A DNA stretch of 13,383 nucleotides from positions 1-13,383 of IMG/VR virus record IMGVR_UViG_2534681933_000013; one strand, written 5' to 3'. Both the position numbers and the translations under genes were made by a program. Under the pieces are notes generated by a model. It did no database searches, was not told the origin of the DNA, and saw only the letters and a program-made list of their open reading frames with translations. The DNA is from a virus. Its lineage: Duplodnaviria; Heunggongvirae; Uroviricota; Caudoviricetes. This document shows, one piece after another, positions 1 through 13,383 of this stretch. Position 1 is the first letter of the stretch. Each line of letters begins with the position of its first letter.

Positions 1-777
<777 letters not shown>

Positions 778-856
778 TTCGAACTCCTTAAATTTATTTG
801 AAGGCAATAAAAAAGTAGGATTTATCCGCAATGGAAGCAAGGCATTACAGGCTTAA

Positions 857-876
857 TTTAAATAACAAAATCCTAA
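857..876 (-). promoter_or_regulatory. GAD box (GadE/GadX-type activator site) upstream of gadA
   Basis: The minus strand reads TTAGGATTTTGTTATTTAAA, an exact match to the 20-bp gad box as I recall it. It lies about 80-100 bp upstream of the gadA ATG in an AT-rich region. Confidence 0.6.
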
Positions 877-944
877 GCAGAAAAATGATCTTTTATAATA
901 TAAACATTTAATATGATAATATTAAAAACAGACTTTATTATCGT

Positions 945-977
945 AATAAAAATCGCCCAAACATTCCTGTTCGGGCG
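945..977 (-). terminator. Intrinsic terminator downstream of yhjA
   Basis: Stem CGCCCAAACA (954-963), loop TTCC, stem TGTTCGGGCG (968-977), 9 of 10 pairs. On the minus-strand RNA it is followed by AUUUUUAUU, about 10 nt after the yhjA stop. Confidence 0.6.
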
Positions 978-987
978 ATCAAATTAA

Positions 988-2385
988 TTATTGTTTATCC
1001 TGCATATACGGCGTGTAAACCCCGTTCAGACTGTGCAGGAAAGCTACGATATCATCCACATCCTCCTGCGGCAGCTCTTTGCCTACCTGATAGCGCAACA
1101 TCAGTTTCACCGCCCCGTCCAGCGTCGGCACGTCACCGCGATGGAAGTACGGTGCCGTTAAAGCAACGTTACGTAAACCGGGTACTTTCTGACGCAATTT
1201 ATCACGCTCTTCTTTAGTCACATTCATACGACCAATATCCGCCGCCGTAATTTCCCCAAAGTTAAAGTCTTTTTTCAGCCCCAACGGTTCGAAGGAACGT
1301 CCGCCGAGAATAATTCCACCATGACAAGTTGCACATTTATTATCTTTAAATAATTGATAGCCTTTTTTCTGTTGCGCCGTCAGCGCATTTTCATCCCCAC
1401 GCAACCATTTATCAAATGGGGAATCCGGCGTAATTAATGTTTTCTCAAATTCAGCAATGGCATCAGTAATATTTTCGCCACTGAAACCTTGCGGATAGAC
1501 GTCGAGGAACTGCGCTTTAAGCTGCGGATCTTTTTCCAGCTTAGCAATAATTTCGTCCCAGGATTTTGACGCCATTTCAATCGGGTTCAACGGCGGTCCA
1601 CCAGCCTGATCCTGCAATGTTGCCGCACGACCATCCCAGAACTGCTCAACGTTAAATACTGAGTTAAATACCGTCGGCGCGTTAATCGGCCCAACTGCGC
1701 CACCAACACCAATCGATGTTTTTCTGCCATCGACGCCCCCCGCATTCAACGCATGGCAATGAGCGCATGAAATGGTGCTATCAGCCGATAAACGGGGATC
1801 GTGATACAGCGCAAAGCCCAACGCCACTTTTTGCGCATCGGTAGGCAGTTTTTGCGGGATGGGCTGCACCGGTTCATTGCGATGCTCCGGAGCAGTATCA
1901 TTGCTGGCGTAATATTCCGCGCGCTGTTTTGCAATCCAGGCCAGTATTTCCGCCCGCTCTTCATCACTCACCTTACCCGCCCAGTGTAGCGCGGTATAAC
2001 GCGTTGGCGGCATAGTTTCATACTGCATCACCCATTCAATCTTATTCAGATCGCTTTGCGAAACGGGTTTATCAGCCAGCAGAGCAGCACGCACGGCCTC
2101 GAGGTTAAAAGATTTATATCCAAGCTTAATGTCGTAATCCATCAACTGTTTCGCGCCAGGAATATAATAATAGGCGGGTAATTCTGCCGAAGGCGTGTGG
2201 CAATAGTCGCATCCTTTTTCGCGGAGAAAGCCTAAAACCTTATTATTTTCACTGACAGCAGATGCCTGAACATCGGCCTGTTTACTGCGTTTATTATCGT
2301 GGTACCACACATAACCAGATAACCCTAAATAGCAAATCGCGACGCCAGCCAGGCCGATCGCGGTAATACGTGAGACCATTTTCAT
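988..2385 (-). CDS. yhjA: Membrane-anchored tri-haem cytochrome c peroxidase (465 aa)
   Basis: Complete ORF with an N-terminal hydrophobic segment and three CxxCH haem motifs (CDYCH, CAHCH, CATCH). GAGGGA Shine-Dalgarno upstream of the ATG. Position between gadA and treF matches K-12. Confidence 0.9.
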   Translation of the reverse strand: MKMVSRITAIGLAGVAICYLGLSGYVWYHDNKRSKQADVQASAVSENNKVLGFLREKGCDYCHTPSAELPAYYYIPGAKQLMDYDIKLGYKSFNLEAVRAALLADKPVSQSDLNKIEWVMQYETMPPTRYTALHWAGKVSDEERAEILAWIAKQRAEYYASNDTAPEHRNEPVQPIPQKLPTDAQKVALGFALYHDPRLSADSTISCAHCHALNAGGVDGRKTSIGVGGAVGPINAPTVFNSVFNVEQFWDGRAATLQDQAGGPPLNPIEMASKSWDEIIAKLEKDPQLKAQFLDVYPQGFSGENITDAIAEFEKTLITPDSPFDKWLRGDENALTAQQKKGYQLFKDNKCATCHGGIILGGRSFEPLGLKKDFNFGEITAADIGRMNVTKEERDKLRQKVPGLRNVALTAPYFHRGDVPTLDGAVKLMLRYQVGKELPQEDVDDIVAFLHSLNGVYTPYMQDKQ

Positions 2386-2492
2386 TATTCTTCCCTCACG
2401 GTGGTGAGTTATTGTGACCCAGAAAATTTTCCAGAATGCTGCAAACGTCTCTGCGAGACAAAGCCATCATAAAAAACAGGGAGATACGCTTT

Positions 2493-2506
2493 TTGATAGG
2501 AATCAA
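2493..2506. promoter_or_regulatory. FNR/CRP-family box TTGAT-N4-ATCAA upstream of yhjA
   Basis: TTGATAGGAATCAA matches both FNR half-sites perfectly, centred about 114 bp upstream of the yhjA ATG. yhjA is known to be anaerobically induced via FNR. Confidence 0.55.
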
Positions 2507-2759
2507 TCAATTACATGAATATAAACTATCAATAAGATAGCCTGTGCCTATTACCCAGATCAGGAATGGCATATCATGATTGCGGCAAGAGCAGGATTGA
2601 ATGTTCTGAAAATGAAAAACAACACGAAATCTGTATTTTTATAAATTCCATTGATATTAGTGCGTTATATTTTTTGACAGGTTAATAAACGTGATCCACC
2701 GCACGCTTTGTCGCCCACCAGGCGGAGCGAATGACTACCCTTAAAGAAAAGCCCGATAA

Positions 2760-4439
<1,680 letters not shown>

Positions 4440-4442
4440 TAT

Positions 4443-4480
4443 TTTTACAGCCAGCCGCTAACTTCCTGCTGGCTGTAAAA
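4443..4480. terminator. Hairpin between convergent treF and yhjB, possible terminator
   Basis: Perfect 12-13 bp inverted repeat TTTTACAGCCAGC / GCTGGCTGTAAAA around a 12-nt loop, starting 4 bp after the treF stop. The flanking U-tract is weak, so terminator function is uncertain. Confidence 0.4.
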
Positions 4481-4489
4481 TTATCCTCT

Positions 4490-5092
4490 TCAGGAGGAGA
4501 TATTTAACATCATTGCCGCCTGGGTGCGATTTTTCACTTCCAGACGGCGATACAGGGATTCCAGATGCGCTTTTACCGTTCCGGTACTGATATTCAGCGC
4601 TCTGCCGATCTCCTTATTTGATTCGCCCGCCGCTAACATGGTTAAAATCTCCCGCTGGCGGGCGCTTAACGATTTGAGATCTTTAATGTCCTTTTCCGGC
4701 GTCGTCCGCCAGTCTCCAGGCAGAAACATCATCCCCATCGCCGCACTATTTACCGCCAACGCAAATGTCTCGACGGTTGAATCACGAGGCACAATGGCCA
4801 GCACATTAAAATGGATAACTTCCTGTAACCACCGTTTATTGCAGTCCGTCGCCGTAATTAACACCTTAACCTCAGGAAATTGCACCACGGTTTTTTGCAG
4901 CAACCAGTAGCAAAACTCACCATCCTGATCGCCATCGAGCATAACTAAGGCTTCAGGGTAACTTTCCAGCTTTTGCCATAACTCGTCTGCCTGACTGGCC
5001 CCCTGAATACTCACTCCTGGAATACGCTGCTGTAAACTGATTTTCATTCCATGAATAAATATTGACTGCCTGTCAAACATGACTATTTGCAT
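4490..5092 (-). CDS. yhjB: LuxR/FixJ-type HTH regulator with a degenerate receiver-like N-terminus (200 aa)
   Basis: Complete ORF with a C-terminal LuxR-type HTH (REILTMLAAGESNKEIGRALNISTGTVKAHLESLYRRL). Position and length match K-12 yhjB. Confidence 0.85.
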   Translation of the reverse strand: MQIVMFDRQSIFIHGMKISLQQRIPGVSIQGASQADELWQKLESYPEALVMLDGDQDGEFCYWLLQKTVVQFPEVKVLITATDCNKRWLQEVIHFNVLAIVPRDSTVETFALAVNSAAMGMMFLPGDWRTTPEKDIKDLKSLSARQREILTMLAAGESNKEIGRALNISTGTVKAHLESLYRRLEVKNRTQAAMMLNISS

Positions 5093-5611
5093 AACTGAAT
5101 CTCCACCTGAATACGTTAAAAAGACTTAAGTAGTGGAAGGGTATTACCCGCGAGAAAAAATAAGAATTCGCCATTTGGCGGTGGCCATTCTACAGAGATG
5201 GCGCGTAGAAAATAGTTACCGATATAAATAGTTACAGCTAAACGCCTGAAATTACATGTCGAGGGCACTATTTAAAACAATTTTGAGGATTTCCTTATAT
5301 TGGTGGTTAGTACGCATGCAATTAAAAATGAAATTCCGCGACCACAAGCCAAAATAACAAATGGCAATGAGACAAAAATAAGCACAAATAGCCAATATGT
5401 CCTCTATTCACTTTAAAGGGAATCGCTGAAAAATACGCTCTGTTTAAGGGGATTCACCTTTCTCAGAAAGCTATTCCGCCCTTTTCCTGCTGAGAAATCG
5501 CCACATTCGTCATGACAACATTGTGAAACCCGGCATTAGATGTTAGAAAAAATAATAAACAATGCGATATGCGCGTTACTGTTTCGCTGTGAACAACAAT
5601 CGGTCAAAGAA

Positions 5612-6592
5612 ATGGATAAAATTCACGCAATGCAGTTGTTCATCAAAGTCGCGGAGCTGGAAAGTTTTTCCCGCGCAGCGGATTTCTTTGCTTTGCCAAA
5701 AGGAAGTGTTTCGCGCCAGATACAGGCACTGGAACATCAACTTGGCACCCAGCTTCTCCAGCGCACCACGCGACGGGTCAAACTCACGCCAGAAGGCATG
5801 ACCTATTATCAACGAGCAAAAGATGTGTTGAGTAATCTCAACGAACTGGACGGTCTGTTTCAGCAGGATGCCACCAGTATCAGCGGTAAATTACGCATCG
5901 ACATCCCGCCAGGAATCGCAAAAAGCCTGTTACTGCCGCACCTGTCGGAATTTCTCTATCAGCATCCGGGAATTGAGCTGGAACTGAGTAGCCATGACCG
6001 TCCGGTAGATATTCTTCATGATGGTTTTGATTGCGTGATACGCACTGGCGCGTTACCGGAAGATGGCGTTATCGCCCGTCCCCTCGGCAAACTGACCATG
6101 GTCAACTGTGCCAGTCCGCACTATCTGACGCGCTTTGGTTATCCGCAAAACCCCGACGATCTCACTTCACACGCAATAGTGCGTTATACACCGCACCTGG
6201 GTGTACATCCGTTAGGTTTTGAGGTTGCCAGCGTTAATGGCGTCCAGTGGTTTAAGTCTGGCGGCATGTTGACGGTAAACAGTAGCGAAAACTATCTCGC
6301 CGCCGGTCTTGCCGGTCTGGGGATTATTCAGATCCCGCGCATTGCCGTGCGCGAAGCCCTGCGTGCCGGGCGGCTTATTGAAGTGTTGCCAGGCTACCGT
6401 GCCGAGCCGCTCTCCCTTTCGCTGGTTTATCCGCAGCGTCGGGAGCTTTCCCGGCGTGTAAACCTGTTTATTGATGCGCCGCGCGATAAATGCACTCTAT
6501 CTTGTGCGATAAATGGCATCCACGCGGCGTTTCATTATTTGAAAAAGAATTACATTTCAGGTTGCGTTATGACAGTCCCAACAGGGTGGTAG
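5612..6592 (+). CDS. yhjC: LysR-family transcriptional regulator whose last ~40 codons read into prophage DNA (chimeric C-terminus)
   Basis: N-terminal LysR HTH (MDKIHAMQLFIKVAELESFSRAADFFALPKGSVSRQ). I prefer the ATG at 5612 to the ORF-track start at 5540 because it gives the canonical LysR N-terminus. The ORF is 326 codons versus about 299 expected, and the tail from about 6472 has Mu-end character. Confidence 0.8.
   Translation: MDKIHAMQLFIKVAELESFSRAADFFALPKGSVSRQIQALEHQLGTQLLQRTTRRVKLTPEGMTYYQRAKDVLSNLNELDGLFQQDATSISGKLRIDIPPGIAKSLLLPHLSEFLYQHPGIELELSSHDRPVDILHDGFDCVIRTGALPEDGVIARPLGKLTMVNCASPHYLTRFGYPQNPDDLTSHAIVRYTPHLGVHPLGFEVASVNGVQWFKSGGMLTVNSSENYLAAGLAGLGIIQIPRIAVREALRAGRLIEVLPGYRAEPLSLSLVYPQRRELSRRVNLFIDAPRDKCTLSCAINGIHAAFHYLKKNYISGCVMTVPTGW
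6472..6540. repeat. Prophage terminal region with Mu R1/R2-like transposase-binding repeats
   Basis: TGATGCGCCGCGCGATAAATGC matches 17 of 22 positions of the Mu right end as I recall it (TGAAGCGGCGCACGAAAAACGC). CGATAAATG occurs twice, at 6484-6492 and 6507-6515, 23 bp apart. Confidence 0.55.
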
Positions 6593-7122
6593 CGGTAGAT
6601 CGTTGACAGTCCAATATCATAGATAATTGCCAGCCGCTTTCTGTCATACCCTTTCTGGAGCAATCTTGCGATCTGCTCATGCTGCTCCTTCGTCAGTTTC
6701 GGGCGACGTCCTCCAACTCTCCCTTGTGCTCGCGCAGCAGCCAGTCCTGCCAGCGTGCGCTCAACTATCAGTTCACGCTCCATTTCTGCCAGTGCACCCA
6801 TCATATGAAAAAAGAACCTTCCCATCGGAGTGCTGGTATCGATTGAATCCGTCAGACTGCGAAAATTGACACCTTTTGCGCGTAGCTCTTCTGTGAGAGC
6901 AATGAGGTGTTTCATTCTTCTACCCAACCGATCCAGCTTCCAGACCACCAATGTATCCCCTCTTTTAAGGCACTTTAAAGCGCGTTTCAGGCCTGGTCGT
7001 TCCGACTTGGTTCCGCTCATTTTGTCCTCAAAAATCTGTTCACATCCTGCGCACATTAATGCATTGCGTTGCAAATCTGTGTTTTGGTCATTTGTTGACA
7101 CACGTATGTAGCCAATCAGCAT
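6550..7122 (-). CDS. Serine DNA invertase of the Hin/Gin/Pin/Cin family (190 aa)
   Basis: Translation from the ATG at 7120-7122 reads MLIGYIRVSTNDQNTDLQRNAL...DRLGRRMKHL...SLTDSIDTSTPMGRFFFHMMGALAEMERELIVERTLAGLAAARAQGR, closely resembling Hin and Gin with the catalytic Ser in RVSTNDQ. The 292-aa ORF-track extension upstream is antisense read-through of a fibre cassette. Confidence 0.9.
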   Translation of the reverse strand: MLIGYIRVSTNDQNTDLQRNALMCAGCEQIFEDKMSGTKSERPGLKRALKCLKRGDTLVVWKLDRLGRRMKHLIALTEELRAKGVNFRSLTDSIDTSTPMGRFFFHMMGALAEMERELIVERTLAGLAAARAQGRVGGRRPKLTKEQHEQIARLLQKGYDRKRLAIIYDIGLSTIYRYHPVGTVITQPEM

Positions 7123-7176
7123 TAAAAATACTCCCTTTTGAGTGGTTAAAGTACTGAGATAATGTGGGGAGGATTT

Positions 7177-7202
7177 GAGAGATAAACGTTGGTTTAGGGG
7201 AA
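7177..7202 (+). promoter_or_regulatory. hix/gix-like 26-bp recombination site 1
   Basis: GAGAGATAAACG-TT-GGTTTAGGGGAA. The right half-site is shared with sites 2 and 3, and the site sits at the 5' edge of the conserved fibre crossover region. Confidence 0.55.
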
Positions 7203-7700
7203 GACTCGGCGCTGCCCGTTGGTGTGCCCGTTCCATGGCCCTCAGCCACACCGCCAACGGGGTGGCTGAAATGCAATGGTGCAGCATTTTCTTCTGAAAT
7301 GTATCCCAAACTGGCAAAAGCCTACCCACCAATAAATTACCGGATTTACGGGGAGAATTTATTCGCGGTTGGGATGATGGGCGCGGGGTGGATGCTGGCC
7401 GCGCTTTGCTTAATTGGCAGCCACACACAATTTTGGATCATGCACACTATATGGAATTATGGACCGGGGATGGACTTGCCGCGGGAAGTACACGGGAAGG
7501 AGTAACCCCTGGAATACTGGCTACATACGGGGACGGGGGAATAGTTAAAACAGACGTAACCCGGTTTTAAATGTGCCTTCCTCACTACGTAGCCATTTAG
7601 CTCTCGTAATGTAAAACGGTTTGGTGAAATTAGTGGAAATGTAGGTACAGAAACTCGCCCTCGCAACGTTGCATTTAATTACATCGTAAGAGCCGCATGA
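7203..7700 (+). pseudogene. Silent, degenerate alternative tail-fibre C-terminal cassette 1
   Basis: Begins with the crossover-region peptide (ALPVGVPVPWPSATPPTGWLKCNGAAFSSEMYPKLAKAYP). A 1-nt deficit in a C-run near 7326-7330 shifts the frame, a stop follows at 7568-7570 and several stops at 7590-7627. The conserved C-terminus GNVGTETRPRNVAFNYIVRAA is still encoded at 7635-7697. Confidence 0.6.
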
Positions 7701-7719
7701 AAACGTTGGTTTAGGAGAA
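7694..7719 (+). promoter_or_regulatory. hix/gix-like 26-bp recombination site 2
   Basis: CGCATGAAAACG-TT-GGTTTAGGAGAA, in the same orientation as site 1. It overlaps the stop codon of cassette 1 and immediately precedes cassette 2. Confidence 0.55.
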
Positions 7720-8187
7720 GGTTCTGCACTGCCCGTTGGCGTGCCTGTTCCATGGCCCTTAGCAACACCACCAACGGGCTGGCTGAAATGTAACGGTGCA
7801 GCATTTTCTTCTGAAATGTACCCCAAACTGGCAAAAGCCTACCCCACCAATAAATTACCGGATTTACGCGGAGAATTTATCCGTGGCTGGGATGATGGGC
7901 GAGGAATTGATGCGGCACGCGCTTTATTGAGCATTCAAAGCGGGATGTTGGAAAAACATCGCCATATTGTTGTAGCTAACGATGGATATGACACAAAAGA
8001 TGAATGGGAGTTGGCTACGATTTTCAAAAAAACATATACACAAGGCAGGGGGCTTGATGCCACAAATACAGGAGGGAGTTTGATTCCATCACCAACGCTT
8101 CATTCACGAGGAAGTATTGGTAACACAGGTGGTAGTGAAACCCGCCCCCGCAATATTGCATTTAACTATATCGTGAGGGCGGCTTAG
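7720..8187 (+). CDS. Silent alternative tail-fibre C-terminal cassette 2, promoterless gene segment with an intact frame
   Basis: Open frame from the crossover site through GSALPVGVPVPWPLATPPTGWLKCNGAAFSSEMYPKLAKAYPTNKLPDLRGEFIRGWDDGRG to the family C-terminus ...ETRPRNIAFNYIVRAA. It has no start context of its own and would be expressed only after inversion. Confidence 0.6.
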   Translation, partial: GSALPVGVPVPWPLATPPTGWLKCNGAAFSSEMYPKLAKAYPTNKLPDLRGEFIRGWDDGRGIDAARALLSIQSGMLEKHRHIVVANDGYDTKDEWELATIFKKTYTQGRGLDATNTGGSLIPSPTLHSRGSIGNTGGSETRPRNIAFNYIVRAA

Positions 8188-8193
8188 TTATAT

Positions 8194-8805
8194 TCAACTG
8201 GCTGATGCCAGTGGTATTTCCGGCAAGTTGATATCTGGTGCCATGTTTATATCCATTGCGTTCAGCGCGTCTATATAATCCAGCACGGCATTAAGCCGGG
8301 TGGTTTCTGCCTGCGTCAACTTCCGCCCGGCCCGCAACTTCAACTGAATCAGACTTATGGAATCCATTGCCGCATCAGCCAGTGACTGGCGCTTGGTTTC
8401 TGCCGCTTCTACTGCGGCACGATGTTGTACCTCAGTATCTGTCACCCATTTTTCACCATCCCATTTATCGTATGGTGTTAACGGGGCGATAGTGGTTGTA
8501 TTTTTCGGGTAGTCACCCAGCGCCGTGATTTCTTCGGTGTTTCCCGTGTCAGTGCTATAGACGGTTTCACCACGATGGTCTGGCGCATACTCCCATGAAT
8601 TTAAATCCTCCGAACGGCGAATAGCATAGCCAGATTTATGTGCGCCTGGGGCATCTAAACAGGAATTAGCCGGAATACCAACACCCACAGCAAGATATTC
8701 AGTTGATTCGGAAATATATTCCCGTGTCTCACCATCATAGTTATAAACGACGATGTTTCCTGCCTGTACGGCAATAAGGTCATCATTTAATATCGCGTTA
8801 TTCAT
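8194..8805 (-). CDS. Tail-fibre assembly chaperone (Mu U / lambda Tfa-like, 203 aa)
   Basis: Complete ORF immediately downstream of the fibre gene with a TAATG stop/start overlap, in the position occupied by tfa genes in Mu, P1, e14 and lambda. Call is by position and size; I could not confirm a family motif. Confidence 0.75.
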   Translation of the reverse strand: MNNAILNDDLIAVQAGNIVVYNYDGETREYISESTEYLAVGVGIPANSCLDAPGAHKSGYAIRRSEDLNSWEYAPDHRGETVYSTDTGNTEEITALGDYPKNTTTIAPLTPYDKWDGEKWVTDTEVQHRAAVEAAETKRQSLADAAMDSISLIQLKLRAGRKLTQAETTRLNAVLDYIDALNAMDINMAPDINLPEIPLASAS

Positions 8806-9253
8806 TATGCGGTTCTCACAATATAATTGAAGGCAATATTGCGTGGGCGGTTTTCATTCCCATCTGAGGATTCCGTTCTGTATTGACTGGTAAATCTACC
8901 GTTAATTGCACCTTGCCGGACGGCATTATCTGTCGACAACAGACTATCCCCTCTTTTGTCATTTGGCACCAGTACCGTGTTATCCCACGCATCCCATGAC
9001 CGAATATTATGATAATGACTTCCTGTTAACCACCCCTGCATGCTTAAGATGCCCCTTCCGGCATCCACCCCGCGCCCATCATCCCAGCCACGGATAAATT
9101 CTCCGCGTAAATCCGGTAATTTATTGTTGGGTAGGCCTTTGCCAGATTTGGGTACATTTCAGAAGAAAATGCTGCACCGTTACATTTCAGCCAGCCCGTT
9201 GGTGGTGTTGCTAAGGGCCATGGAACAGGCACGCCAACGGGCAGTGCAGAACC

Positions 9254-9279
9254 TTCTCCTAAACCAAGGTAATTGAGGA
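9254..9279 (-). promoter_or_regulatory. hix/gix-like 26-bp recombination site 3, within the expressed fibre gene
   Basis: Plus strand TTCTCCTAAACC-AA-GGTAATTGAGGA matches about 19 of 26 positions of hixL as I recall it (TTCTTGAAAACCAAGGTTTTTGATAA). It is inverted relative to sites 1 and 2 and lies at the constant/variable boundary. Confidence 0.6.
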
Positions 9280-9439
9280 CTTCTTTTATACTGCCCATAG
9301 CGATAATAGCGCGACCAATAGCTGTAAGGGTTGTCAGTGCTGCGCGGTCTGCTCCGGTAAAATAAGGCAACCGATCTGCTGCAGTGGCAAGTCCTGCCAG
9401 AGCAGTGAGCGTGGCATCTGCCGGTTGTTTTCCGTTTGC

Positions 9440-9990
9440 CAGATCGTATGCAGCCTTGACCGCTTTCGGTGTGGCGGCCAGTATTTCAGACGTGCTGTTG
9501 ATGTCACTGCTCAATTGTACGGTGCCTTTTGCCGTCAGCGAGGCAGCAGGCACTCCCGTTATCTGACTCCACGGGTGAGTGTGGCTGACGGGCGCCTTGC
9601 CGGCTGCAAGGTCGTATGCAGCCTTGACCGCCTTCGGCGTGGCAGCCTCAGTTTCTGATTGACTGTCCGTGGCGCTGCTCAGTTGTACGGTGCCTTTTGC
9701 CGTCAGCGAGGCAGCAGGGACTCCCGTTATCTGACTCCACGGGTGAGTGTGGCTGACGGGCGCCTTGCCGGCTGCAAGGTCGTATGCAGCCTTGACCGCC
9801 TTCGGCGTGGCAGCCTCAGTTTCTGATTGACTGTCCGTGGCGCTGCTCAGTTGTACGGTGCCTTTTGCCGTCAGCGAGGCAGCAGGCACTCCCGTTATCT
9901 GACTCCACGGGTGAGTATGGCTGACGGGGGCCTTGCCGGCAGCCAGGTCATATGCAGCCTTGACGGCCTTTGGTGTGGCGGCCAGCGTTT
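9440..9990 (-). repeat. 168-bp in-frame tandem repeat array inside the tail-fibre gene
   Basis: The string CTGACTCC recurs at 9563, 9731 and 9899. Units 9563-9730 and 9731-9898 are near-identical; the flanking units are partial or diverged. Each unit encodes a 56-aa module. Confidence 0.8.
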
Positions 9991-10252
9991 CAGAGGTGCT
10001 AGTTGGTGGCACTGCTCAGTTGGGTGAACCCCTTAGCTGTCAGTGTCGCGTCCGGGTGGTTACGGGAACGTACGTGTTCAGCCAGTGACTGTGCGGCTTC
10101 CTCCGTTTTTTTCTTCAGCCATTTCGTCCTGTTTGCCAGTTGCCGGGGGGCTCGATTTGATATCCCGTCTGCACCACCCAGAACCGGATCTGATGTCTCC
10201 AGTTGATAGATATTTTCTTCCCACTTTTCTGTTTCATTCAGGTTTCCCATAA

Positions 10253-10831
10253 TCAACTGCTCCCGTGGTTATAACTGCCATCATGGATGGCGGTATTGTT
10301 ATAGCGAATGGCCACAGACTGATACTCCAGGCTGGCCAGATGGCAGCGGGCCGGTGCAAATGCAGCCAGCGTCTGACGCAGCATCGCGGCCTGATCGTTA
10401 GTAATGGGCTGTTTCAGAATAACGCGATAAACTGCCCAGGCGGCTGCATCTCCATGAACAAACAGTCCGTTATAGCTGCGATTGCCGTCGTAACTGAGAC
10501 GACCTGTGCCTTCAATCAGATCCACTTCACCAAAGCCAAAACGGCGGATAACTTCCCGGATTGACCACGGCGTCCCTTTATACCGGTGCAGTTCGATGGC
10601 TGCTTTTATAAGCATGCGGCGAACATCGTCCGATTCCGCCAGCTCCCAGCCATCGCCAGACAGTGAGAACTGCTCGCCCAGCCATGGCAGCGCGGAACTG
10701 TCGACGATATCGACGAGAAAGACCATCAGTACGCTCAGGTCGATGTTATCCAGCCGTCCTGCCAGTCTTCCCAGCGTCCTGAGACTGATATCACCCTCAA
10801 GCGGTGGCGGGAGTTGTAATGGCTCAGTCAT
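10253..10831 (-). CDS. Baseplate/tail protein, P2 gpI / Mu gp48-like (192 aa)
   Basis: Complete ORF immediately upstream of the fibre gene, with overlapping stop and start codons on both sides. Call is by size and position in the baseplate operon. Confidence 0.7.
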   Translation of the reverse strand: MTEPLQLPPPLEGDISLRTLGRLAGRLDNIDLSVLMVFLVDIVDSSALPWLGEQFSLSGDGWELAESDDVRRMLIKAAIELHRYKGTPWSIREVIRRFGFGEVDLIEGTGRLSYDGNRSYNGLFVHGDAAAWAVYRVILKQPITNDQAAMLRQTLAAFAPARCHLASLEYQSVAIRYNNTAIHDGSYNHGSS

Positions 10832-11927
10832 CAGACACTCCAGTCATGTTAAGAGTGATTGCCGTACAGTTTGCCCATTCGTTTTCTGCCACCACCCGCA
10901 GTGCCGGTGTCACCAGTTCAACCTGGTACACCCCGGAAACGGACAATGCACTGATAATCTGGCTGGGGACAATATCGCGCCCCAGCGTGGCGGCACGTGA
11001 TGCCACCCAGTTCTGTATGGCGCTGTTAGCGGCATCTTTTACAGACCTGGCATCCTGATCACGATAGATCGTAATCTTGGCTTCAATGGTGTAATCCACC
11101 TTCACTGGTGTTTTAGCCCGCACTGTATCAGTGAGTGGCCTGACTTTCTCATCAGAGCAGAAACTCTCTACCAGCGTGAGAACACCGCCGTCCGGCAGAC
11201 CGGTACTGAGCAGCGGATACAGATCTACGGTCCCGGGAACCGGGGAAAGCACAGCAACATCGACAATGTTGGGATGGGCCTGCATGGCATGAAAGCGGTA
11301 TGCGCCACGGCTTCCGGCATTGGTGAATGACTCCGGGGCCAGCCTGATACGCTCCCGGAGCCTGTCATCGTCTTCCTGTTCTGAACCGCCGGAACTGGCC
11401 GTCAGATTGCTCACCAGCAGGTCGACGTTATCAATCTCATCGAGTAACTGACTGACCTGCGCAGGTTGCCAGCCGTTACCAGCGGTACCGGGTTCGGTAC
11501 AGGTGGACGTGACATTGACCAGCAGCAATCCGGCCTTCAGTACCACATCTGTATCGGTGGCAAAAATAACGCTGTCGGAAGCGCTGACGCGGGTGCCTGC
11601 CGGGATCAGCACATCAATGGCCAGTGCCTCATCTACGGAGAACTGGAGCGTGGTAGTGGCAGGCTGCGCGGCAAGACGGTATACACCGACCAGTTCACCG
11701 AGGTAATCAATCATCGGCTCACGGGCAAAGGCGACCAGATTCTGCTTTGCTGCCTCCTGTACCGCAACCCTGACCAGCATTTCGCGATAGGCCCACAGAT
11801 CAATCAGCAGACGTTCTGCCTGTGCCGGGTACAGCGTTTTGCCGGTATCCGCTTCATACTTCGCAATCATTTCTGCCGTGATTTTGTCGGCATCGCGTTC
11901 AATAAAATCGGGTTCTGTCAGCGCCAT
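10824..11927 (-). CDS. Baseplate protein, P2 gpJ / Mu gp47-like (367 aa)
   Basis: Complete ORF between the gp25-like and gpI-like genes, overlapping both neighbours by 8-10 nt. Size and position fit the Baseplate_J family. Confidence 0.75.
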   Translation of the reverse strand: MALTEPDFIERDADKITAEMIAKYEADTGKTLYPAQAERLLIDLWAYREMLVRVAVQEAAKQNLVAFAREPMIDYLGELVGVYRLAAQPATTTLQFSVDEALAIDVLIPAGTRVSASDSVIFATDTDVVLKAGLLLVNVTSTCTEPGTAGNGWQPAQVSQLLDEIDNVDLLVSNLTASSGGSEQEDDDRLRERIRLAPESFTNAGSRGAYRFHAMQAHPNIVDVAVLSPVPGTVDLYPLLSTGLPDGGVLTLVESFCSDEKVRPLTDTVRAKTPVKVDYTIEAKITIYRDQDARSVKDAANSAIQNWVASRAATLGRDIVPSQIISALSVSGVYQVELVTPALRVVAENEWANCTAITLNMTGVSDD

Positions 11928-12265
11928 AGCAGCTCCTGAGTCCGGGTCTGTCCGTCTGAGCCTTTCCAGCTCACCCGGAGCGTAAGATGTTCGCCGTCGA
12001 CGGCGGGTTTAACTGACATAAGCTGGCAGCGGGGCTCCCAGCGCCGGATGGCATCGACGGATTCGCGCACCACATGCGGAATGGCCCGGTCTACAGGCCA
12101 GTCGATATAAAGATGCAGATTGCTGCCGAACTCCGGGCGATGCGGGTCGCTGCCGCGGGGAGTCCGCAGGATAATTTGAATCGCCTGCCGGATATCATCC
12201 AGCCCCCGGACAATTTCGCCGGGAGCCTGCAGGGTCGGTTGCCAGAATACTGAGGTTGTTTTCAT
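11918..12265 (-). CDS. Baseplate wedge protein, gp25/gpW-like (115 aa)
   Basis: Contains the gp25-family core IQIILRTPRGSDPHRPEFGSNL. The 115-aa size matches P2 gpW and Mu gp46. Confidence 0.8.
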   Translation of the reverse strand: MKTTSVFWQPTLQAPGEIVRGLDDIRQAIQIILRTPRGSDPHRPEFGSNLHLYIDWPVDRAIPHVVRESVDAIRRWEPRCQLMSVKPAVDGEHLTLRVSWKGSDGQTRTQELLWR

Positions 12266-12283
12266 GGGGGCAGTATTGCCCCC
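12266..12283 (-). other. Stable hairpin abutting the start codon of the gp25-like gene
   Basis: GGGGGCA-GTAT-TGCCCCC, a perfect 7-bp GC-rich stem. On the mRNA it ends directly at the AUG and covers the likely Shine-Dalgarno position. Confidence 0.5.
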
Positions 12284-12319
12284 GTGCGGGAACGCTGATA
12301 TTAAAGGCGTTTAAAAAGC

Positions 12320-12916
12320 TCAGTGGGAGTGGTGGCTGGAGTTTTCGCCATCAGACAACATACTGCCCGTGGCATGGGCATTCCCTTTAATCTCGATATT
12401 GCCATGGATGGTCGCGGTAACACCTTCACCACCAGAACCCGCCATGCCTCCTTCGTAAATCAGCTTACCCCTGACACGCAGATCTCCGGTAAGTTCGGTT
12501 TCCGGTGCGTCAATCGTGGCTTTCTGTGTTTTCAATACCACATCAGCACCACACTCAATGACAATATGCTCAATGCCGCCCCGGATGGTCAGAGTGTGCG
12601 TCTTCCGGTTGTAGCTGTACTCTGCACCATCAGCAAACCGGGTTCCCCGGATATTTTTGTCACTGAACGGTGGTTTATCGACGTCTGAATACACCGCGCC
12701 CAGAATAACACCATCCTCGCCGTTGGCATCGAGCAGTACCTCAACCTGCTCCCCCACGTCAGGGAGCCAGTAATCTTTGTTATCCTGGGTATTGCGCTGC
12801 AGCACGTTAAGCCAGTTTGTGCGCAGGTTATCGCATTCAGGCAGACGAACGCGGGCCTGAACCCTGTCGGCATCAACGGCACTGACCGTACCGACCTGAC
12901 GAGTGACACCAGTCAT
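12320..12916 (-). CDS. Baseplate spike/assembly protein, gpV / Mu gp45-like (198 aa)
   Basis: Complete ORF with a gpV-like N-terminal segment (WLPDVGEQVEVLL) and a glycine-rich C-terminal part. Its start overlaps the upstream gene's stop (ATGA). Confidence 0.75.
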   Translation of the reverse strand: MTGVTRQVGTVSAVDADRVQARVRLPECDNLRTNWLNVLQRNTQDNKDYWLPDVGEQVEVLLDANGEDGVILGAVYSDVDKPPFSDKNIRGTRFADGAEYSYNRKTHTLTIRGGIEHIVIECGADVVLKTQKATIDAPETELTGDLRVRGKLIYEGGMAGSGGEGVTATIHGNIEIKGNAHATGSMLSDGENSSHHSH

Positions 12917-13383
12917 TTTTTCTTCTCCTTAATCACCGTCGATGTACTGCCATCCGGGTGATAAACCGTGAGTTTCTGAGTTTTTTGTTTTTTCCCTCTT
13001 GTGACTGGCCCCCGTGCCACTTCCAGCTCTGTGGTGTAGCCGCTGTTACGGTCAAACGCATGGCGGGCAGTGGTTATGAGCCATGGCCCGGATAACTGCC
13101 CAAAACCCACCAGTTCAATTTTGTTGCCTGCTGTCAGTTGAGGTGTTCCCGTCAGCGTCAGGGAGCCGTTCTGCTGGTATTCGTTATGTCTGGCCAGTGC
13201 TGAATCCGCTTTAATCCGGGCACTGTCCGGGTCGCTGACGCGGCTGTTAACTTTAAGTGAGTCAGCGCTGGTAACCTTACCACCTTTGAGCTTTTTGTCG
13301 CTTTCACGGGTACCACCATCAGCTTCGTAGACGATCAGTTTTTTACTGCTGCTTTTCTGGTGTTTTACCTTTGCAGATTTATA
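12913..13383 (-). CDS. Phage baseplate/tail protein, C-terminal 156 codons; possibly the gpD / Mu gp44 hub, by synteny only
   Basis: The minus-strand frame is open from the window end to the stop at 12913-12915 (ends ...LTVYHPDGSTSTVIKEKKK). The ORF track shows only its last 65 codons from an internal GTG. Product assignment is positional. Confidence 0.45.
   Translation of the reverse strand, partial: YKSAKVKHQKSSSKKLIVYEADGGTRESDKKLKGGKVTSADSLKVNSRVSDPDSARIKADSALARHNEYQQNGSLTLTGTPQLTAGNKIELVGFGQLSGPWLITTARHAFDRNSGYTTELEVARGPVTRGKKQKTQKLTVYHPDGSTSTVIKEKKK

Follow-up and report, generated by a model that had tools for sequence, protein, structure and literature searches.

The analysed stretch, called the window throughout, comprises all 13,383 nt of the virus record, and its features are collected in Table 1. 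Host genes fill the window from its left end up to rcdB, and this host flank (1-6471) is 100% identical to many O157:H7 genomes. When positions 5400-7600 were compared by megablast with 5426 complete E. coli genomes, the matches split at query position 1072/1073, which corresponds to a host/prophage junction at 6471/6472. Up to 6471 the window is host rcdB. Prophage DNA, beginning with TGATGCGCC..., follows from 6472 on, and in other strains the same DNA adjoins unrelated host genes. The intact rcdB gene reads ...CCTGTTTAT/GCAGTGGCTGG... up to its stop codon (also given as ...CCTGTTTAT/GCAGTGG..., with the slash at the junction), that is, for 13 further codons. Because of the megablast split and this continuation of the intact gene, we conclude that a mobile element was inserted after 6471. 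The earlier note, made from the letters of the sequence, had read 6472 as a prophage terminus, and this reading holds: the junction is the end of a transposable prophage.

Table 1. Features of the window at and around the prophage right end (coordinates in the window)
Feature	Position	Strand	Basis or remark
rcdB, 5' 860 nt	5612..6471	+	LysR-family regulator gene cut by the prophage; 100% identical to annotated rcdB of O157:H7 genomes (megablast)
GTTTAT, presumed right-hand copy of the 6-bp target-site duplication	6466..6471		Inferred from the duplications in two complete copies
attR, complete conserved right end, ~82 bp	6472..6553	+	Logo of 62 non-redundant family right ends
Terminal TG and site 1, TGATGCGCCGCGCGATAAATG (core GCGCGATAAATG, 6481-6492)	6472..6492	+	Fits the pattern TGWWGCGCSGCGCGAWAWWT; 17/22 of Mu R1
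Site 2, TCTTGTGCGATAAATG (core GTGCGATAAATG, 6504-6515)	6500..6515	+	Repeats site 1 in direct orientation, 23 bp inward
Third conserved block, GTTTCA-ttatt-TGAAA-aagaa-TTACA	6529..6554	+	Terminus positions 58-61, 71-72 and 76-81 conserved
Gin/Pin/Cin-type serine DNA invertase, transcribed toward the terminus	6550..7122	-	Pfam Resolvase 8e-51, HTH_7; 77% identical to Mu Gin
Invertible tail-fibre segment, alternative C-terminal cassettes and tail-fibre assembly gene	7186..9270		Inverted repeats, ORFs, annotation of the equivalent L001 region
Tail-fibre and P2-like baseplate/tail genes	9191..13383	-	98.1% identical to Escherichia phage PhiKM, classified as Bcepmuvirus

The insertion at this point of rcdB is carried by 0 of the 5426 complete E. 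coli genomes; each of the listed O157:H7 genomes gave a single rcdB match and none to the prophage part of the query. Across the junction runs a fusion ORF (5540-6592), in which rcdB without its last 13 codons is followed by about 40 phage-encoded codons that cross the prophage end and terminate at a stop codon at 6590-6592. The insertion probably alters or inactivates the LysR regulator RcdB.

On the phage side, the invertible segment next to the invertase gene contains two pairs of inverted repeats, 7186-7398/9058-9270 (213 nt, 89%) and 7703-7847/9126-9270 (145 nt, 97%). With a further nested inverted repeat at 7822-7937/9037-9152, it is a multiple-inversion tail-fibre region, and the nested repeats imply more than one alternative fibre C-terminus, like the Mu G, P1 C and p15B Min systems.

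The prophage starts with a terminal TG (6472-6473). An exact 10-mer, GCGATAAATG, occurs at 6483 and again at 6506, with the 23-bp spacing given in the earlier note and no further exact copy in the window, and CGATAAATG is found at 6484 and 6507. By our own arithmetic about 0.8 exact 10-mers repeated within 60 nt are expected per 13-kb window, so that by itself the repeat is weak evidence; what gives it weight is its place at the terminus and its conservation across the family. When one mismatch was allowed, 3 copies of the motif were counted in the window against 1.26 expected, which is not significant by itself. Site 1 is a putative binding site of the terminal transposase protomer.

The spacer between the invertase stop codon and the terminus (6472-6549) is 78 bp long, as had been noted before. 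Since the conserved end measures about 82 bp and the invertase stop codon (6550-6552) lies inside it, these 78 bp leave no spare spacer; judged from the family alignment, they are wholly end sequence, fully occupied by conserved end elements. Simple scans of 6300-7300 found no sigma-70-like promoter and no intrinsic terminator, and a role of the 78 bp as terminator or promoter of the invertase gene was rejected on this basis.

To describe the end in the family, a pattern, TGWWGCGCSGCGCGAWAWWT, was derived from the window, BcepMu and B3, and positions 6472-6491 fit it. A scan of IMG/VR with this pattern returned at least 119 sites, mostly at contig ends. Site 2 had been left out of the search pattern, so its conservation is independent of it: site 2 is found at an offset of 22 or 23 in 62 of 70 non-redundant ends. 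In the logo of 62 ends, two direct repeats 22-23 bp apart are followed by the third block, and the information content is close to zero after position ~82. The first ORF boundary lies at a median of 88 nt from the terminus (mode 78-97; 68 family ends), with 46 of these ORFs facing the end and 22 facing inward. In the BcepMu/B3 family the first gene thus normally begins or ends about 78-97 bp from the terminus, and the window is typical in this respect. In complete E. coli genomes the same right end is present in 650 of 5426, inserted at many different sites, with as many as 3 occurrences in one genome; its host neighbours include rcdB (in the window), yidK, malE, ssuB, an EAL-domain gene and others.

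Two complete prophages of about 36.9 kb have a right end 100% identical to that of the window, one in yidK (L001, strain DLI.5a) and one in malE (L184, BLSE177-2012). From the left end they carry Mor, GemA, further genes, Gam, B (an ExeA/AAA_22 ATPase), A, a DUF3102 protein and a Ner-like protein, in an early operon that is transcribed toward the left end and has Mor as its last gene. A divergent repressor and a Dam-like methylase come next, and then the lysis, Mu-like head, P2-like tail, tail-fibre and invertase genes, transcribed toward the right end. An early operon inverted relative to Mu is the arrangement of B3 and BcepMu (PMC5977238).

Both complete copies have TG...CA termini at both ends, a feature that is common to many DDE elements and does not discriminate between them. 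Their target duplications are 6 bp long (2 of 2), CCTTGC in yidK and ACCTTC in malE, and the empty site reconstructed for CCTTGC matches yidK perfectly. By analogy, the duplication in the window should be GTTTAT, with the other copy presumably at the left end, outside the window. We would expect the source prophage to be about 37 kb long, its left end ...CATTTATCTCAAGTCTAATCA being joined to GTTTAT and then to the last 40 nt of rcdB. Outside the window, and observed in relatives only, are the transposase, the left end and the second copy of the duplication; these relatives are 98-100% identical over the end. As end references we used neither PhiKM and phiE255, whose records are permuted or partial, nor KP12, whose record starts 23 bp before the invertase stop codon.

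Transposase A of the complete copies is a protein of 589 aa, of the WP_000990525 type, in which rve is the only Pfam match, and it is 69% identical to TnpA of BcepMu/phiE255 and 57% identical to TnpA of B3. The DD35E residues D160, D254 and E290 are invariant in 114 homologues. Compared with MuA directly, it gave a BLASTP E value of 0.45 and, with the 114-sequence profile, an hhalign probability of 0.2%. Single-sequence and shallow-profile searches of the PDB returned weak integrase-core matches only; the PDB profile search returned retroviral integrases and TnsB, with MuA absent from the matches. A first AF2 model, built on 28 sequences at least 67% identical, was poor (pLDDT 58) and its fold matches unreliable, and it was replaced by a model based on the 114 sequences. 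The predicted structure has the parts of a multi-domain transposase, namely a pair of DNA-binding domains at the N terminus (residues 1-145), a DD35E core of RNase H-like fold and a beta-barrel, and by this model the protein is structurally closest to TnsB and IstA.

At the left ends the motif is inverted, TGAnnAGAnnTGAGATAWWT, and a second GTGAGATAAAT lies 22-23 bp further in (L001, L184, BcepMu, B3 and IMG/VR contigs). A scan with the left-end pattern gave the mirror image of the right-end picture. The earlier note had proposed to look for inverted copies of the motif at the opposite end, and at the left ends of the complete copies they are present. Imperfect direct repeats of ~23 bp at each end, inverted between the ends, have been published for phiE255 and BcepMu (PMC2920897).

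The right ends of the three phages can be aligned base for base, with TGATGCGCCGCGCGATAAATG...GTGCGATAAATG in the window, TGAAGCGCGGCGCGATATTTC...GCGCGATAAATT in BcepMu and TGTAGCGCGGCGCGAAATTTG...TGCGCAATAAATG in B3. In the Burkholderia phages BcepMu and phiE255 (genus Bcepmuvirus), a terminal TGAAG/TGATG is followed by GCGCSGCGCGATAWWT, a second GCGCGATAAAT site lies 22-23 bp further in, the third block is found at ~58-82, and the inverted motif stands at the left end. They also share with the E. coli phage the rve transposase, the ExeA-type B protein, the early operon directed toward the left end, the P2-like tail and the Mu-like head genes. However, nucleotide identity with them is restricted to the end motifs, and the genes next to the right end differ: an acyltransferase gene in BcepMu and several strain-specific genes in phiE255, but a Gin-type invertase with an invertible fibre segment in the E. 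coli phage.

Pseudomonas phage B3 (Beetrevirus) has TGTAGCGCGGCGCGAAATTT..GCGCAATAAATG, CGTTTC at 57-62 and AAAAGAATT at 71-79, all at the same positions as in the window, and its early operon is inverted as well. It differs in its siphovirus-type tail, in having no invertase, and in carrying, inside the tail cluster (L007, 25863-26812), a Com-like gene (tblastn against Mu Com, 4e-7) and after it a gene for a DNA adenine methyltransferase. In the E. coli prophage L001, a D12-class Dam-like methylase is encoded in the central regulatory region (27418-28188). DNA modification functions are therefore present in the BcepMu/B3 lineage, but not at the right end. Tandem end sites are also a matter of small transposons without phage genes, such as Tn552, Tn7 and the CAST elements, whose ends are bound by p480 or TnsB; we take their site sequences to be unrelated to those of the window, and the number and spacing of sites in Tn7 to be different.

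Using tblastn with Mu Com and Mom as queries, we detected no homologues in the window, L001, PhiKM or KP12 (E above 1), which agrees with the earlier remark that a mom/com module is missing. Nothing has been lost, as the BcepMu/B3 family carries no mom/com at its right end. Because the terminus is found at many host sites, and because of the gene order, the rve transposase, the aligned ends, the 6-bp duplications and the lack of Mom/Com, we consider it very probable that 6472-6553 is the attR of a transposable prophage of BcepMu/B3 type, inserted by transposition into the 3' part of rcdB. A feature of this kind is already known, and this one is itself widespread in public genomes.

The resemblance to Mu deserves a separate description. 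The actual right end of Mu (NC_000929, reverse complement) is TGAAGCGGCGCACGAAAAACGC, and the Mu sequence used in the earlier note, with its 17 matches in the first 22 nt, proved accurate. For this ungapped match the binomial P is 4e-7 with p=0.25 and 6e-5 with p=0.35. On the family site-1 matrix Mu R scores 14.3 bits, a value reached by 0 of 500,000 random 21-mers starting with TG, and its best site-2 match in the family register is GATAAA at 36, compared with 36/37 in the family (P = 5.5e-4). Mu L gave no match to the family end matrices. Moreover, Mu attR has the TG terminus, two head-to-tail sites with a period of ~22-23 bp and a third element at ~56-80, and CGATAAATG is found in R2 at Mu 35-43, compared with 36-44 in the window. 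A Gin invertase is the neighbouring module in Mu as well, and the overall logic, a multi-domain DDE transposase with an AAA+ partner, is the same.

The differences concern the features that discriminate. MuA sites are generally about 22 bp long, with an inner half ending in CGAAA(R); Mu R1 has CGAAAG at 22-27 and R2 has CGAAAA at 45-50, whereas CGAAA occurs nowhere in 6472-6549 and the repeated core of the window, GYGCGATAAATG, is without this element. MuA is of the Pfam DDE_2/Mu-transpos_C type with catalytic residues D269/D336/E392, unlike the rve type with D160/D254/E290 in the complete copies with the window's end. Mu makes 5-bp duplications, in contrast to 6 bp in the complete copies with the window's end, and its early operon (ner-A-B...) reads inward from the left end, while that of L001 and L184 reads toward it. 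From the gin stop (35673) to the Mu end (36717) there are 1044 bp holding com and mom, compared with the 78 bp of the window. Membership of the Mu/MuA family thus fails on every discriminating feature tested. The earlier note had seen adjacent MuA-type sites in the repeats: two tandem, putatively transposase-binding sites at the expected spacing are indeed there, but they are not of the MuA type. Its larger conclusion, a Mu relative with a minimal right end, has to be given up, since complete copies with the identical end have the BcepMu/B3 gene order, an rve/DD35E transposase and 6-bp duplications, and about 80-90 bp from the last gene to the terminus is the family norm and no reduction from a Mu-like state. 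The Gin-like invertase with its invertible fibre segment, a module common to unrelated phages, probably prompted the Mu reading.

A genuine MuA-type prophage of the Mu family, with the com/mom module deleted and attR shortened, could draw on the identity to Mu R1, on the nearly equal register of CGATAAATG in Mu R2 and on the invertase close to Mu Gin. We regard it as hardly credible all the same, given a transposase unlike MuA in the complete copies, the inverted early operon, the length of the target duplications and the repeats without CGAAA. Moreover, the same 82-bp end architecture exists in Burkholderia BcepMu and Pseudomonas B3, and the end is therefore ancestral to the lineage and no deletion product. 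Smaller still, practically nil, is the probability that the 10-mer repeat and the Mu match arose by chance and that 6472 is an ordinary site-specific att junction or the end of a deletion. The expected number of such repeats per window and the insignificant motif count would both allow for it. However, this terminus adjoins many different host genes, the duplicated 6-bp host sequences differ from copy to copy, the repeat is conserved in the great majority of the non-redundant ends, the site-1 score of Mu R was reached by none of the random 21-mers, and its site-2 match has a low chance probability; the comparative data refute this reading.

Another question is whether the right end is still a working substrate of transposition. 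The window stops inside the tail genes and its rcdB insertion is found in none of the complete genomes, as might be the case for a remnant, that is, a defective or truncated prophage. But the end is fully identical to those of two full-length prophages, the window's invertase and tail ORFs are intact, and two phages of the same type, PhiKM and KP12, have been deposited as isolates, which makes a remnant quite unlikely.

For the attR of a BcepMu/B3-like prophage, a mechanism can be proposed by analogy to the transpososomes of TnsB, MuA and Tn552, in which binding is in tandem. Two TnsB/IstA-like DD35E transposase protomers would bind sites 1 and 2 in tandem through their two N-terminal DNA-binding domains, and would pair with protomers at the two inverted sites of the left end. 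Together with the AAA+ partner (ExeA/AAA_22, the analogue of MuB/TnsC), with which the target would also be chosen, they would join the 3' ends to this target, the cuts in its strands being staggered by 6 bp. The invertase gene, as the last gene of the phage, abuts the end, with its stop codon overlapping the third block. The model builds on the observed position, repetition, inversion between the ends and conservation of sites 1 and 2, and on the 6-bp duplications; binding of the repeats by TnpA is what the first four of these suggest.

The third block is a different motif, and no third inverted copy of GCGATAAAT was found in 6517-6560. Its half-sites co-vary between phages (TTTCA/TGAAA, TTGCA/TGCAA, TTGCC/GGCAA), and perfect inverted repeats of at least 5 bp are found in it in 43% of the ends, compared with 16% of shuffles and 22% of a downstream control. 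An IHF site and a -35/-10 pair were rejected, as the conserved letters fit neither. The left ends contain, ~85-100 nt inward, related elements of the form TTKCR (K = G or T, R = A or G). The block also occupies what we take to be the position of R3, the third MuA site, in Mu. Most likely, although we say so with low confidence, it is a third transposase site or a site of an accessory factor. Short co-varying inverted repeats are typical of operators or hairpins, and the overlap with the invertase stop codon could likewise point to a signal of gene expression outside the transposition machinery, for example a terminator or a promoter of the invertase gene or of the late operon, or an operator of a phage regulator. 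We consider such a main function unlikely: the simple scans detected neither a sigma-70-like promoter nor an intrinsic terminator at the block, its distance from the terminus is fixed whatever the adjacent gene or its orientation (46 toward the end, 22 inward), and both the left-end elements and the presumed correspondence to Mu R3 speak for a part in the end itself.

The resemblance between Mu attR and the BcepMu/B3 right end is real and, by the matrix scores, far beyond chance, despite transposases without sequence similarity; MuA and the DD35E TnpA are distant structural relatives only. A model with unrelated transposases does not account for how strongly Mu attR matches the family consensus. 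The ends might descend from an ancient common ancestor, they might have been exchanged between lineages, or distantly related DNA-binding domains might share a mode of recognition. Tentatively, and with less than even probability, the right ends of Mu and of BcepMu/B3 might be homologous or held alike by a shared mode of end recognition, and the third block might then be an R3-like site or the site of an accessory protein common to these phages.

The overall significance of these results is modest. A prophage that is common in E. coli, being present in ~12% of complete genomes, ST131 among them, is assigned to the BcepMu/B3 lineage and not to Mu, and one more gene disruption, that of the regulator gene rcdB, is documented. 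The 82-bp three-block consensus of the right end, the 6-bp duplications and the TnsB-like fold of the transposase are by-products that could serve prophage annotation or the design of mini-elements. The likeness of Mu attR poses a modest evolutionary puzzle, namely whether transposon ends are conserved or exchanged across transposase families.

Several minor observations were made in the relatives. In the IMG/VR contig L089, a right-end motif (2344-2363) and a left-end motif (8163-8189) lie on the same strand 5.8 kb apart, which may represent two adjacent or nested elements or a rearranged one. The malE copy (L184) has two extra small genes between Mor and the left end (796-1593), and its left end differs (TGATCAGACATGAGATAAATG) while the right end is identical, so the left-end region is variable among otherwise close prophages. 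The left ends of the family and of Mu all have several short repeats of the GGGA(W) type directly inward of the second transposase site, in L001 at 39040-39100 (left-end positions ~45-100), in Mu at 30-75, in BcepMu at 50-85 and in B3 at 45-90; these may be pac elements, since all these phages have Mu-like terminases and pac lies at the left end according to the literature. Finally, the Gin-like invertase sits in a phage that otherwise belongs to a different lineage of transposable phages, and the invertase/fibre module appears to move between lineages.
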